Assembly (NCBI GenBank): GCA_964468315.1
Contig: CAYXTA010000001.1
Span: 64,277 to 128,276, forward strand
Length of the DNA stretch: 64,000 nt
Reading direction: 5' to 3'
Source of the DNA: an uncultured Candidatus Saccharibacteria bacterium
GTDB lineage: Bacteria > Patescibacteriota > Minisyncoccia > Phycocordibacterales > UBA9973
The notes beneath the pieces are model-generated. The model was not told the origin of the DNA. It saw only the letters and a program-made list of their open reading frames with translations, and did no database searches. The position numbers and the translations under genes were made by a program. Shown piece after piece: positions 44,703 through 52,768 of this stretch (positions are counted from its first letter, which is position 1; every line of letters begins with the position of its first letter).

Positions 44703-44774
44703 GAGCGTGTAGTTCAGTGGTAGAACGCTGTCCTGATAAGACAGAGGTCGATGGTCCGATTCCATCCACGCTCA
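44703..44774 (+). tRNA. tRNA-Ile (anticodon GAU). CCA is not encoded.
   Basis: Hand fold: acceptor GAGCGTG/CACGCTC, D arm GTTC AGTGGTA GAAC, anticodon arm CTGTC CTGATAA GACAG, T arm GATGG TCCGATT CCATC, discriminator A. Confidence 0.75.
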
Positions 44775-44775
44775 C

Positions 44776-45000
44776 ATGGAAGATAATAAAGAAAAAATAT
44801 GGTGGCACCCCGCAATGTTCTTCTTTGGAAAGACAACCGGTTGGATCATCTCACCACTTATTATTATTTTTTTAATTAAAAATTTTTTTGTTTTAAATAA
44901 CATTATTTTTTATCTTCTCTTTGGTCTCGGCTTCATTATGACTTGTTTTGGTATTTACAGAGAAATAAAAAAATATAAGAAAGATATACATCAAGAATAA
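44776..45000 (+). CDS. Small 2-TM protein, possibly ATP synthase protein I/AtpZ-like.
   Basis: The position directly 5' of atpB and its size and topology support this. The ATG begins 2 nt after the tRNA-Ile 3' end. Confidence 0.35.
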   Translation: MEDNKEKIWWHPAMFFFGKTTGWIISPLIIIFLIKNFFVLNNIIFYLLFGLGFIMTCFGIYREIKKYKKDIHQE

Positions 45001-45003
45001 ATT

Positions 45004-45921
45004 ATGGCAAATATAACAACAGAACAGCATAATACAGAGCACGTAAATCACGAAGTAACTATATACGCAGAACCTATTTTTTCTGTAGGTAATTTTCAAA
45101 TCACAAATTCACTTATCACTTCTTGGCTCGCACTTATAATCATTTTCGCACTGGCTCTCACTATCAGAAGAAAAATGAAAAAAATACCAGGTAAACTTCA
45201 GCATTTTTTTGAAATAATTATGAATGGTGCGATTTCTCTTTGCGATCAAGTTACTAATGACAGGAAGATATCGGTAAAGATATTTCCGCTTATCTTTTCA
45301 CTTTTTCTTTTTATTCTCATATCCAACTGGCTCGGGCTAGTACCAGGCTTAGGTGCCCTTGGTTTTACTCTATATGAGGCAGGTCATGCTTCTTTTGTTC
45401 CTCTTTTCCGTTCGGGTACGGCTGACATCAACACAACCCTTGCTTTCGGCCTCATGGTTGTCATCGCTTCCAATTTCTTTGGCGTCATCACGGTTGGTGC
45501 ATGGAAAACTTTCAATAAATATGTTAATCTAAAAGCGCTCGGTTCTATGGTCACCAAGGTGCGCAAAGATCCGGGTGTGATCATTGTTGCCCCCATTACA
45601 TTCTTTGTAGGGCTTCTCGAGCTCATTGGGGAAATGGCAAAAGTCGCTTCGCTCTCGTTCCGTCTTTTTGGAAACGTTTTTGCAGGAGAGGTGCTTTTAG
45701 TGTCGATGTCTGCACTTTTTGCGTATCTCGTACCTGCACCGTTCCTCTTTTTAGAGGTGTTCGTCGGCTTGATACAGGCACTTATCTTCAGTCTTCTTGC
45801 GGCAGTCTATTTCACTATAGCAGCACAAGACCATGATGAACATGAACCTGCCCACCCTCACGATGTGTCGGGAACAGGAGGGGAGCATGAGCATCACGAC
45901 AAAGAAGTGGCGCATGCATAA
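45004..45921 (+). CDS. atpB: F-type ATP synthase Fo subunit a, with a His/acidic-rich C-terminal extension.
   Basis: Conserved Arg-containing helix (LSFRLFGNVFAGEVLL). Tail AQDHDEHEPAHPHDVSGTGGEHEHHDKEVAHA. Confidence 0.85.
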   Translation: MANITTEQHNTEHVNHEVTIYAEPIFSVGNFQITNSLITSWLALIIIFALALTIRRKMKKIPGKLQHFFEIIMNGAISLCDQVTNDRKISVKIFPLIFSLFLFILISNWLGLVPGLGALGFTLYEAGHASFVPLFRSGTADINTTLAFGLMVVIASNFFGVITVGAWKTFNKYVNLKALGSMVTKVRKDPGVIIVAPITFFVGLLELIGEMAKVASLSFRLFGNVFAGEVLLVSMSALFAYLVPAPFLFLEVFVGLIQALIFSLLAAVYFTIAAQDHDEHEPAHPHDVSGTGGEHEHHDKEVAHA

Positions 45922-45987
45922 ATTATTAAAAAGTAGTCGAAAAATTATTAGTAATCCGTCCCGCACAGCGGGATCAATTAAAAAAAT

Positions 45988-46230
45988 ATGGAAACAACAG
46001 AAGTAGTTAGTAGTGCAGTCAATTTGGTACCAATAGCGAAAGCACTCGCTATCAGTATCCCTGGTTTCGGTGCAGCATTAGGTATTGGTATGATCGGTTC
46101 AAAAGCTATGGAAGCTATTGGAAGAAATCCAGAAGCTACAGGCAAGGTGCTTGTCCCTATGCTTATCGTATCTGCTTTCGCTGAAGCGATCGCTATTTAC
46201 GGTCTTGTTATCGCTTTCTCACTTAAATAA
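45988..46230 (+). CDS. atpE: F-type ATP synthase Fo subunit c.
   Basis: [22 protein letters not shown]...; two TM hairpin with a conserved acidic residue (E). Confidence 0.9.
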
Positions 46231-46255
46231 TGTTTGAAGCCTCAATGTTCAATTT

Positions 46256-50371: not shown

Positions 50372-50402
50372 AAATTATTATAAACATTATTAAAAAATTA
50401 TT

Positions 50403-51752
50403 ATGAACAAAGGAACAATAAAAAGAATAATCGGGCCGGTCGTGGATGTGGATTTCGGAGATCAAATTCCAGAAATTTATTCTGCGCTTGAAGTTATGAA
50501 TGGTGATAAAAAAATCATTCTCGAAGTCGAACAAAATATCGGTGGAGGAGTCGTGCGTACAGTGGCTATGGATACTACTGACGGTCTCGCTCGCGGACAA
50601 GAAGTCGTAAACACAGGCAAGCCTATTTCAGTGCCAGTCGGTAAAGAAACACTTGGAAGAATTTTCAATGTACTTGGTGCTGTTATTGATGACGGTGCAT
50701 CTGTAAATGCTGGTACTTCACCAATTCACCGTAAAGCTCCAGACTATGTATCTCAATCAACAAAGATTGAAATCCTCGAAACTGGTATCAAAGTTATTGA
50801 CCTTATCTGTCCTGTTTTGAAAGGAGGAAAAGTTGGTCTCTTCGGAGGTGCTGGTGTTGGTAAAACTGTCGTCATTCAAGAGCTCATTCACAACATTGCA
50901 TCAAACCACGGCGGATATTCTGTATTCGCAGGAGTAGGAGAAAGAACTCGTGAAGGTAACGACCTCTACCACGAAATGAAAGATTCAAAAGTTCTCGACA
51001 AAGTTGCCATGGTCTTCGGACAGATGAACGAACCACCAGGTGCTCGTCTACGTGTGGCTCTCTCAGGACTCACGATGGCGGAACACTTCCGTGACCAAGA
51101 AGGTAAAGACGTTCTTTTCTTTATCGACAATATTTTCCGTTTCACTCAAGCAGGTTCCGAAGTTTCTGCACTTCTCGGCCGTATTCCTTCAGCCGTGGGT
51201 TACCAGCCAACTCTCGCGACAGAAATGGGAAATCTACAAGAACGTATTACTAGTACAGACAAAGGTTCTGTGACATCTGTCCAAGCTGTCTATGTGCCAG
51301 CCGACGACCTCACAGACCCAGCTCCAGCTACTACTTTCTCTCACCTCGACTCTACTGTGGTGCTAAACCGTTCACTTTCTGAAATCGGTATTTACCCAGC
51401 TGTTGATCCTTTGGACTCATCATCTACAATTCTTGATCCGAACATCGTCGGAAAAGAGCATTACGAAGTTGCTCGTGAAGTGCAAAGAGTTCTACAAAGA
51501 TACAAAGACTTACAAGACATCATCGCTATTCTCGGTATCGAAGAACTTTCTGATGCAGACCGTGAACTCGTCGCTCGTGCTCGTAAGATTCAAAAATTTC
51601 TTTCACAACCATTCTTCGTCGCTGAGCAATTCACTGGTGCTCCTGGCCAATACGTTCCGCTCGCAGACACGATCCGTTCTTTCCGTGAAATTCTTGATGG
51701 CAAGCATGACGACAAGCCAGAGAATGAGTTTTATATGAAGGGCGCGTTATAA
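50403..51752 (+). CDS. atpD: F-type ATP synthase subunit beta.
   Basis: P-loop [15 protein letters not shown]-like region ([10 protein letters not shown]). Confidence 0.95.
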
Positions 51753-51763
51753 AAAGTTAAAAC

Positions 51764-52282
51764 ATGGTCAATGAAATACCAAAATTAAACATCACACCAA
51801 GAGAGCAACCTGAATTTAGACCAAAAAGTTCTAAGCAAGAGCTTTTAAATCTACGTATACAGATTGTTAATGACACTGTAAACAATAACCTTCCTTCTTT
51901 TAAGGAAGTGCATCTAATGCATGGAGATGAACAAATTGGTGGTTTAGATTTTGAGCAATATCCTGAAGATAAATTTATTAAAATAAATAAAGCTACGCTT
52001 GACAACAAGTACAAAGGAAACGATCTTGGTATGAAGTTATATGAAACACTTATATCTTTTGCTAAAGAAAATAATTTTGAAAAGATAAAGAGTGATAATA
52101 TTGTTCAAGGAGGAGCTATTGCAGTATGGATAAAATTGTCTGATAAATATAAAGTTTTAGTAAATCCAAGTATCCAGGAAAAATATACTGAATTTGTAAA
52201 AATTTATAAAGATAACAAGTTTTTTAAGGATTACTTATCAGTCTCTCCAGGTGAAAGTGTTTTTGAATTAGATTTAAAATAA
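51764..52282 (+). CDS. Possible GNAT-fold acetyltransferase-like protein inserted between atpD and atpC.
   Basis: YKGNDLGMKLYETLISFAKENNFEKI resembles GNAT motif A. This is a weak call. Confidence 0.35.
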   Translation: MVNEIPKLNITPREQPEFRPKSSKQELLNLRIQIVNDTVNNNLPSFKEVHLMHGDEQIGGLDFEQYPEDKFIKINKATLDNKYKGNDLGMKLYETLISFAKENNFEKIKSDNIVQGGAIAVWIKLSDKYKVLVNPSIQEKYTEFVKIYKDNKFFKDYLSVSPGESVFELDLK

Positions 52283-52289
52283 AAATAAT

Positions 52290-52733
52290 ATGGCAAAACA
52301 ATTAAAACTAAAAATAGTCACCCCAGAAAAGCTCGTATTGGAAGAGCTTGTTGAAAGTGTGACATTGCCGACATTGGAAGGGGATATCACAATCTTGCCT
52401 GAACATGTGCCAATCATCGCTGGGCTCAAATCTGGGGATGTCGTTGCGTTTGTAAATGGTGAGCATGTACCGATGGCTGTCGTCGGTGGTTTTGTCGAAG
52501 TTAAGAAAGAAGATGGAATTACAACTGTCGCAGTGCTTGCCGACTTCGCAGAACATATTGCAGATATTACTGACGAAGCAATAGAGAAAGCAAAAGCTCG
52601 TGCAGAAGAACTCCGAAAGCTCGCAGAAAACAAAGAACATGTCGACTACGAACATTTTGCAACTGAACTCGAACGCTCTCTCACTCGCGTCAAAATCGCA
52701 GATAAATGGAAGACAAGAAAATATAGAAAATAA
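52290..52733 (+). CDS. atpC: F-type ATP synthase subunit epsilon.
   Basis: KLKIVTPEKLVLEELVESVTLPTLEGDITILPEHVP, with a C-terminal helical hairpin. Confidence 0.85.
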   Translation: MAKQLKLKIVTPEKLVLEELVESVTLPTLEGDITILPEHVPIIAGLKSGDVVAFVNGEHVPMAVVGGFVEVKKEDGITTVAVLADFAEHIADITDEAIEKAKARAEELRKLAENKEHVDYEHFATELERSLTRVKIADKWKTRKYRK

Positions 52734-52737
52734 AAAT

Positions 52738-52768
52738 TAAAAACTCCCTAGTGTGGGAGTTTTTAATT
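52738..52768 (+). terminator. Intrinsic terminator of the atp operon.
   Basis: AAAAACTCCCTAGTGTGGGAGTTTTTAATTTTTT. Confidence 0.65.

Follow-up and report, generated by a model that had tools for sequence, protein, structure and literature searches.

Three lineage-specific reading frames interleaved in an otherwise ordinary F1Fo ATP synthase operon of a Patescibacterium

The canonical bacterial F1Fo ATP synthase operon has the gene order atpZ/I-B-E-F-H-A-G-D-C. Extra genes within such operons are known from the N-ATPases, where atpQ and atpR are additional small membrane genes that occupy fixed positions and are conserved across N-ATPase operons. In ultra-small bacteria, whether the ATP synthase makes ATP or pumps protons is still debated. 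In this study, we analysed a stretch of 64,000 nucleotides (nt) from contig CAYXTA010000001.1, hereafter the window, which carries an ATP synthase (atp) gene cluster in the region 44703-52771. This locus is an ordinary F1Fo ATP synthase operon of a Paceibacteria-type Patescibacterium. It comprises the same nine genes as the canonical operon, in the same order, but departs from it in having three extra cistrons between the F1 genes, an N-terminally short delta subunit and a long His-rich tail on subunit a; moreover, it lacks Shine-Dalgarno sites and a tRNA gene abuts its first start codon. The whole cluster is tightly packed, lies on the + strand throughout and closes with a hairpin and a T-run. 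The order is tRNA-Ile(GAU), atpZ-like, a, c, b, delta, alpha, X100, gamma, X162, beta, X172 and epsilon, where X100, X162 and X172 designate the inserted open reading frames (ORFs) of 100, 162 and 172 amino acids (aa). We found no prior description in the literature of interleaved ORFs in atp operons of the candidate phyla radiation.

The first-pass annotation of this DNA proposed that the three extra ORFs are probably co-transcribed with the atp genes and possibly represent novel accessory subunits or regulators. The ORFs are real and co-directional, and all features are present where they had been placed: X100 at 48680-48982 between alpha and gamma, X162 at 49883-50371 between gamma and beta, and X172 at 51764-52282 between beta and epsilon, all on the + strand. 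X100 starts 6 nt after the alpha stop codon and overlaps the gamma start by 14 nt, and the remaining gaps are, in order, 8, 31, 11 and 7 nt. Hence, the distance between X162 and beta lies outside the range of 6-14 nt given for these gaps and overlaps. Co-transcription of the inserts is almost certain on sequence, as there are no + strand terminator-like sites at the gene junctions of the operon (those found lie inside coding sequence) and a likely terminator follows epsilon. Each inserted ORF fills its segment, and a stop-free run of that length was obtained in only 6, 0 and 0 of 20,000 shuffles for X100, X162 and X172, respectively. An independent Logan assembly (L084) contains X100 and X162 at 100% identity. 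X100 was also recovered at 100% identity in a Joint Genome Institute assembly (L083), in which the locus breaks off within atpG, and an NCBI record includes a copy of X172 that is 99% identical. Since they recur in independent assemblies or records, the three ORFs are not assembly artefacts.

A search with AtpG as query retrieved 80 related loci, almost all from Patescibacteria metagenome-assembled genomes (MAGs), the nearest of which are labelled Paceibacteria, Nomurabacteria or Parcubacteria. The nearest group keeps the neighbourhood prfA – RRM protein – tRNA-Ile – atpZ – atpBEFHAGDC – rsmI. None of these 80 atp loci contains a homologue of X100, X162 or X172 detectable by tblastn, and profile hidden Markov models of the X162 and X172 families yielded no match over the same set. 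The window could also be compared with a sister species (L081/L082), whose ATP synthase proteins are 92-100% identical to those of the window (AtpA 96%, AtpG 92%, AtpD 94%) and whose PrfA is 99% identical. This species carries X162 at the same gamma/beta junction, with 83% identity, and is devoid of X100 and X172, having spacers of only 15 nt (alpha/gamma) and 5 nt (beta/epsilon) in their places. Along 23 kb over which the two genomes are collinear, they differ in gene content only by X100 and X172. The flanks of both indels show normal nucleotide identity to the sister species (86-96%); because this holds on both sides, we rejected the presence of foreign flanking DNA. A duplication of neighbouring atp genes was likewise rejected as the origin of the inserts, as none of the three resembles any atp subunit. 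These data show that the three inserts differ in age and origin, X162 being older than the split from the sister species. The proposal of new accessory subunits or regulators is thus not supported. X100 and X172 are missing both from a sister species whose AtpA is 96% identical and from the 80 related operons, an absence that the annotation itself had named as refuting, and the conservation check that accompanied it leaves X162 alone as shared, in that single sister species. Altogether, judged from these comparisons, none of X100, X162 and X172 is a conserved subunit of the ATP synthase.

The positions of the inserts are not peculiar to this genome. Taking as an insert any segment of at least 150 nt at an atp junction, we counted inserts at the alpha/gamma junction in 15 of 80 loci, at gamma/beta in 20 of 76 and at beta/epsilon in 14 of 70. 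On the Fo side, only 2-4 inserts were counted per junction at the four junctions, out of 41-57 loci. The F1 junctions are therefore occupied far more often than the Fo junctions (49/226, or 22%, versus 10/200, or 5%; Fisher p=4e-7). Cargo at the F1 junctions is unrelated between lineages. For instance, L001, the most closely related of the GTDB species representatives, bears four different ORFs at its atp junctions: a 116-aa membrane ORF at b/delta, a 54-aa membrane ORF at alpha/gamma, a 153-aa ORF at gamma/beta and an 81-aa ORF on the opposite strand at beta/epsilon. When X100, X162 and X172 were compared with the L001 ORFs at the same positions, only E-values of 0.9-3 were obtained, and nothing resembling X100 or X162 was seen. 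Elsewhere, the cargo includes 23S-rRNA-IVS proteins (PF05635), PDDEXK_3, Bro-N, cyclophilin, NUDIX and nucleoside deoxyribosyltransferase-like proteins, together with many ORFs of no family. PF05635 proteins are found at four junctions (c/b, b/delta, gamma/beta and beta/epsilon) in seven MAGs (L045, L046, L047, L059, L061, L062 and L068), and PDDEXK_3 proteins at beta/epsilon in L039 and L045. In another locus (L010, 8278-9665), atpA is seemingly split, its C-terminal domain (PF00306) forming a separate 155-aa ORF that is followed by a 106-aa membrane ORF and then by atpG.

X172 had been described as GNAT-like, and this assignment finds support at the level of its family. Among 5.8 billion protein clusters, X172 matches one 99% identical copy and one 60% homologue; an alignment with protein P0002 shows 62% identity, with the conserved residues arranged in blocks. 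The X172 family has 42 representatives among 1.84 billion proteins. A profile built from a 30-member alignment of this family matches the GNAT structure 1r57 with E=1.4e-7, and nearly all of its 41 matches in PDB are GNATs. Moreover, 23 of the 30 members match PF00583, with a best E-value of 1.5e-8. On its own, X172 falls below the Pfam cut-offs, with 16.4 and 14.6 bits. An AlphaFold2 model computed from an alignment of three sequences (pLDDT 51.6) displays a beta-beta-beta-beta-alpha-beta order, and the top 50 Foldseek hits of this low-confidence model are all GNATs, with TM-scores of only 0.33-0.41. Based on the match of the family profile to 1r57, the PF00583 matches and the Foldseek results, X172 is best regarded as a divergent mini-GNAT. 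The segment that aligns to the acetyl-CoA pyrophosphate loop (Q/R-x-x-G-x-G/A) reads YKGNDLGMKLY and keeps only the last Gly of the motif; the family consensus in this region is Y-x-G-x-x-L-G-x-x-L-Y. A weak PADLOC match of X172 to REase_II (19 bits) was disregarded.

The closest described proteins are the mini-GNATs of PF14542 (Acetyltransf_CG; structures 1r57 and 2h5m, and YjdJ, 5i0c) and the PF00583 family. The X172 family profile aligns with them over the beta4-alpha3-beta5 core, and 22-23 of the 30 members match these families. In contrast to described mini-GNATs, X172 scores below both Pfam gathering thresholds, has a non-canonical pyrophosphate loop (YKGNDLG) and carries about 50 extra N-terminal residues as well as a conserved C-terminal extension (VNP...Y..F...Y...FK..L.V...SVFEL). 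The genomic surroundings of the family are varied. The 60% homologue of X172 lies between alpha and gamma in another operon, and a 50% homologue (L085) belongs to a four-gene island located directly upstream of gamma. This island (L085, 23-2429) encodes a 187-aa ORF with no assigned function, the X172-family GNAT, a 143-aa ORF also lacking an assignment, and an ART-PolyVal ADP-ribosyltransferase-like protein; a further ORF of 75 aa is found between gamma and beta in the same locus. Family members that are at most 43% identical adjoin genes for MscL and a sigma factor, alanine racemase, a CYTH protein, or helix-turn-helix (HTH) and Shedu proteins. In the last case (L095, 2-3023), a 286-aa member with a C-terminal extension has an HTH protein and a 288-aa unassigned ORF on one side and a Shedu SduA nuclease on the other. 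Two metagenome scans for the X172 family returned no finds, and no relatives of X172 or X162 were present in viral and phage collections. Altogether, X172 is a putative acetyl-CoA-dependent acetyltransferase of a rare mini-GNAT family; it was acquired recently, and its family moves between atp junctions and other loci.

The other two inserts have a much narrower distribution. X100 matches only itself among the same 5.8 billion protein clusters, and all matches of X162 share at least 83% identity with it. Neither of them gave anything significant in sequence searches of Pfam, NCBIfam, PHROGs, PADLOC or PDB. X100 contains about three hydrophobic segments, and its hydropathy supports membrane segments. 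Homology between X100 and the small membrane cargo ORFs of relatives was rejected (z<=1.6). X100 is an orphan membrane peptide confined to this species and may amount to hardly more than a translated spacer. X162 is an acidic protein whose AlphaFold2 model is all-helical and of low confidence (pLDDT 47), which makes it unusable for a fold search. The ratio of nonsynonymous to synonymous substitution rates (dN/dS) of X162 against the sister species is 0.22, compared with 0 to 0.14 for the atp genes. X162 is thus a real gene under purifying selection, with a weaker constraint than the atp genes. As a separate observation, a 17-nt direct repeat of the atpD start region (AAAAATTATTATAAACA / AAAAATTATTATGAACA) occurs at 50370/50393, within 50370-50409. 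It lies between the X162 stop codon and the ATG of atpD and may be an insertion footprint.

The expression signals of the window suggest how such inserts could be accommodated. No Shine-Dalgarno motif was detected upstream of any atp gene, and a Shine-Dalgarno core precedes only 7 of the 72 ORFs of the window. On the other hand, 27 of these 72 ORFs have a -10-like box that ends 4-12 nt before the ATG, versus 8.7% at random positions. Often, the box reads TGnTATAAT and is followed by exactly 6 nt; examples of such extended boxes, ending about 6 nt before the ATG, are those at 42816, 41047, 52787 and 32025. This pattern suggests that leaderless mRNAs are widespread in this genome. The first cistrons of transcription units would then be mostly leaderless, and internal cistrons would rely on ribosomes handed on from the preceding ORF. 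Under these circumstances, an insert would be tolerated only if it brought an ORF ending beside the next start codon, and such an ORF would gain transcription and translation for free, with no signals of its own. The need for this ribosome hand-over could account for the tight packing of the inserts, their bias toward the highly conserved F1 genes and their rapid turnover. We thus consider it probable that X100, X162 and X172 are three independent promoterless hitchhiker genes, lodged at the alpha/gamma, gamma/beta and beta/epsilon junctions of a permissive, constitutively transcribed operon. As lineage-specific cargo, they should be neither annotated nor pursued as subunits of the enzyme. In a broader sense, the F1-junction hotspots, together with the missing Shine-Dalgarno sites and the apparent leaderless starts, suggest how new genes can be born or parked in streamlined genomes.

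Several points weigh against promoterless hitchhiking and must be set beside the competing explanations. Transcription, tRNA processing, leaderless initiation and the translational relay are all inferred from sequence. A mechanism of insertion was looked for and none was found: neither target duplications nor terminal repeats around the inserts are convincing, and short AT-rich repeats are at background level. Purifying selection has kept X162 at one and the same junction in both species. Within the X172 family, the three proteins that are closest to each other (at least 50% identity, X172 included) are all located in or beside atp operons, which is beyond what is expected for random hitchhikers. 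Finally, small multi-TM (transmembrane) ORFs of about 100 aa recur at alpha/gamma and gamma/beta in several lineages and, because of this recurrence, a fast-evolving functional class of small membrane ORFs is still conceivable. The last three observations would also fit a lineage-specific ATP synthase partner among the inserted proteins. The mini-GNAT might acetylate a subunit, X100 might be a membrane assembly or stabilising factor comparable to AtpI or AtpZ, and X162 might be a helical inhibitor comparable to epsilon, zeta, AtpTheta or IF1. Such a role would suit ORFs that are so tightly embedded in the operon, and it gains some plausibility from the presence of X172 and its closest relatives at two different atp junctions. 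However, a partner is hard to reconcile with the absence of X100 and X172 from a sister species whose enzyme is 92-100% identical, or with the lack of any homologue in the 80 related operons. In addition, the more distant X172-family members adjoin genes such as those for MscL, alanine racemase or Shedu, X162 has no significant match in Pfam, inhibitor families included, and no insert resembles an atp subunit. We therefore regard a partner function for one or more of the inserted proteins as unlikely.

Alternatively, the inserts could be selfish or conflict cassettes, that is, mobile ORFs of toxin or defence type that actively target the junctions of conserved operons. The cargo of other Patescibacteria at the same junctions does include families that Pfam links to insertions or mobile elements (PF05635, PDDEXK_3, Bro-N and ART-PolyVal), one X172-family member adjoins the Shedu SduA nuclease, and relatives of X172 occur at different junctions. 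Yet signatures of a nuclease, an integrase or a recombinase are absent from X100, X162 and X172, PHROGs and PADLOC gave no convincing match, viral and phage collections yielded no relatives, and no repeats above the AT-rich background border the inserts; furthermore, X162 has stayed in place since the species split. Active targeting by such cassettes is accordingly quite unlikely. More speculative still is the idea that the F1 junctions are dedicated landing sites for promoterless cassettes, some of whose cargo, namely the mini-GNAT clade that tracks the atp operon and the ~100-aa membrane ORFs, is tied to the enzyme. We deem this improbable; if true, together with a His-rich proton antenna and a tRNA-punctuated leaderless operon, it would mean that ultra-small bacteria possess a distinctly remodelled and differently regulated ATP synthase. 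The remaining explanation, that the ORFs are chance frames in non-coding spacers or assembly artefacts, could be entertained for X100, which has no homologue and whose AT-rich, T-skewed sequence would encode hydrophobic residues by default. Against it stand the rarity of stop-free runs spanning the inserts in shuffled sequence, the identical X100 and X162 genes in independent assemblies and the near-identical X172 copy in NCBI, the purifying selection acting on X162 and the conserved protein family to which X172 belongs. We thus find chance or artefact extremely unlikely, and we retain promoterless hitchhiking as the best explanation of the three inserts.

On the 5' side of the operon, the tRNA-Ile(GAU) gene (44703-44774, + strand; Rfam RF00005, 71.9 bits) has no encoded CCA; ARAGORN calls it at 44703-44775. 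The annotation had placed the end of this tRNA 2 nt before the ATG of the atpZ-like ORF. Direct reading of the acceptor stem locates the discriminator A at 44774, followed by C at 44775 and the ATG at 44776. Because the acceptor stem and the Rfam end concur in this position of the discriminator, a single C separates the tRNA from the start codon, so that the junction itself stands and its width is reduced to 1 nt. In relatives, a tRNA-Ile(GAU) lies 5' of the atp operon, in either orientation, in 21 of the 26 that were scanned. Co-directional copies are usually located 24-150 nt from atpZ, and others are inverted. An identical tRNA-C-ATG junction is present in the sister species (L081) and in a more distant relative (L017, AtpG 61% identical). 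With the tRNA 3' end within 0-2 nt of the start codon, no room is left for a promoter. The operon would be transcribed through the tRNA, and 3' processing of the tRNA would release an mRNA starting one base before the AUG of atpZ, which would be effectively leaderless. A candidate promoter for this tRNA-atp transcript is a promoter-like site at 44641-44669 on the + strand (TTGCCC, 17 nt, TG-TATATT), identified by a consensus scan with 9/12 matches and an extended -10; this is weak evidence, as the scan yields no excess of sites over shuffled sequence. Overall, this tRNA–C–AUG arrangement is found in two lineages, and its product is probably a leaderless mRNA, which receives indirect support from the leaderless first cistrons that this genome appears to use widely. 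Upstream of the tRNA, a small ORF (44369-44623; 62-84 aa) has a signal- or TM-like N-terminus. Its identity to the corresponding sister-species ORF is a mere 48%, with flanks at 90% or more, and it is either fast-evolving or not a gene.

The first ORF of the operon (44776-45000, + strand) encodes a small membrane protein of 74 aa with two hydrophobic stretches and ends 3 nt before atpB. The window protein itself gave no match to PF09527, or to any other Pfam family, at E<=1. By tblastn, 28 relatives have a homologue of it at the corresponding position, and seven out of eight of these orthologues pass the PF09527 (ATPase_gene1) cut-off. Its dN/dS against the sister species is 0.10. The earlier naming of this ORF as atpZ-like is thus upheld through its orthologues, and we regard it as a diverged member of the family, its membership depending on this transitive link.

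Subunit a (atpB, 45004-45921, + strand; 305 aa; PF00119, E=2.3e-39) ends in a His/Asp/Glu-rich tail (45826-45918, + strand), QDHDEHEPAHPHDVSGTGGEHEHHDKEVAHA, that follows directly after ...VYFTIAA. The extension exists as annotated, although we count 31 aa after the last helix rather than 32, with 8 His, 9 Asp/Glu and two H-x-H motifs. Tails of 15-41 aa follow ...VY(F/Y)TI(A/S)x in the window and in 26 relatives whose AtpG is at least 51% identical. They contain 4-8 His, except in L026 (1 His), typically start with xDHDEHE and often end in AHA. More distant Patescibacteria and proteobacterial operons mostly have 3-9 residues after the helix, typically xEEH or ExH, and tails of intermediate length (12-14 aa, 3-4 His) occur at three loci. 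This distribution indicates that the tail is a clade-wide expansion of an ancestral acidic/His "EEH" terminus and not a peculiarity of this genome. A recent report showed that an 18-aa His-rich extension of ice-worm ATP6, when fused to E. coli AtpB, increases ATP synthesis about 5-fold and leaves hydrolysis unchanged (PMC12035521, 2025). The authors proposed proton shuttling at the exit pore and reported that such an extension is absent from all other ATP6 sequences in GenBank (PMC12035521). Like the ice-worm extension, the tails described here are His-rich, predicted to be disordered and attached to the final helix of subunit a (ATP6 in the ice worm), close to the proton exit on the cytoplasmic or matrix side. 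They differ from the ice-worm sequence, which is 18 aa long with alternating His, in that they comprise 15-41 aa, mix His with Asp/Glu (xDHDEHE...AHA) and are inherited across a bacterial clade. By analogy with the ice-worm result, a proton antenna is at least as likely as the metal binding that had been suggested for the tail, and the tail most likely serves as an antenna that shuttles protons at the cytoplasmic half-channel. The presence of His-rich tails throughout a bacterial clade contradicts the published uniqueness of the ice-worm extension, and it provides dozens of natural variants for the proton-antenna idea.

All eight core subunits (a, c, b, delta, alpha, gamma, beta and epsilon) are present and recognisable in this operon. 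For a, c, b, delta and epsilon, the Pfam cut-offs were passed by the proteins of the window itself. We identified alpha, gamma and beta instead by their 76-96% identity to relatives and by the recorded domains of their orthologues, PF00006 and PF00231 being on record for identical or orthologous proteins. On the + strand, atpE (subunit c) lies at 45988-46230 (PF00137, E=3.6e-17) and atpF (subunit b) at 46256-46750 (PF00430, E=3e-25). Gene callers give atpF a length of 148-161 aa, and its true start is likely the ATG at 46304. The atpH gene (46762-47169, +; PF00213, E=4.2e-21) encodes a delta subunit of 135 aa, which aligns only to positions 48-172 of the 172 positions of the OSCP profile, so that about 47 N-terminal positions are missing. 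In relatives, delta is similarly short (127-135 aa). The alpha gene atpA (47171-48673, +) was assigned by translation; its product is 96% identical to that of L081, and Pfam domains are on record for the identical gene in L083/L084. Downstream, atpG (gamma, 48969-49874, +) is identical to a gene in L084 for which PF00231 is on record, and atpD (beta, 50403-51752, +), likewise assigned by translation, is 94% identical to its L081 orthologue, whose Pfam domains are recorded. The operon ends with atpC (epsilon, 52290-52733, +; PF02823, E=1.8e-19), directly after whose stop codon we located, by scan and from the sequence, a likely terminator (52732-52771) with a hairpin core CTCCC/GGGAG, A/T extensions and a T-run.

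Within the Fo genes, two segments stand out in the comparison with the sister species: 45197-45500 in atpB and 46336-46485 in atpF show 71-74% nucleotide identity, versus about 90% around them. In keeping with this, synonymous divergence (dS) is 1.3 for atpB and 1.0 for atpF, versus about 0.5 elsewhere, which suggests local recombination or relaxed constraint. After epsilon, a membrane ORF of 167 aa is listed at 52751-53254. The listed GTG is part of the terminator hairpin, and the end of a TGTTATAAT box is located 6 nt upstream of 52787; its start is therefore probably the ATG at 52787, which would give a protein of about 155 aa. Within the nearest group, homologues of this ORF are found only in L001 and L081/L082. 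Elsewhere in the window, a LOOT RNA (Rfam RF03000) is present at 22912-23030 on the - strand, its score of 90.5 bits being well above the gathering score.

The locus can finally be set against the systems it most resembles. ORFs of PF05635 and PDDEXK_3 interleaved in the atp operons of other Patescibacteria use the same junctions, vary in position and are, like the inserts studied here, co-directional and tightly packed. X100, X162 and X172 differ from them in that they match neither family, with no Pfam match and no BLAST link to the PF05635 cargo. N-ATPase operons offer a similar layout, with small hydrophobic ORFs (atpQ and atpR) co-transcribed among the atp genes; in contrast, X100 is an orphan that is missing even in the sister species, and the operon described here has the ordinary F-type order. 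Apart from the inserted proteins, it is the by-products of this locus that may prove of more use, namely the F1-junction hotspots, a natural His-rich tail and a possible tRNA-defined mRNA start. As for the latter, co-transcripts of tRNA and mRNA are known from mitochondrial tRNA punctuation and from the E. coli tRNA-tufB operon, in which a tRNA likewise stands 5' of a coding cistron. For bacteria, the tRNA–C–AUG junction provides a candidate example of mRNA 5' ends set by tRNA processing. As in the mitochondrial punctuation model, a tRNA is placed immediately 5' of a protein-coding cistron, and its excision would set the 5' end of the mRNA at the AUG. Unlike in mitochondria, the arrangement involves a single tRNA on a bacterial chromosome of free-living type.

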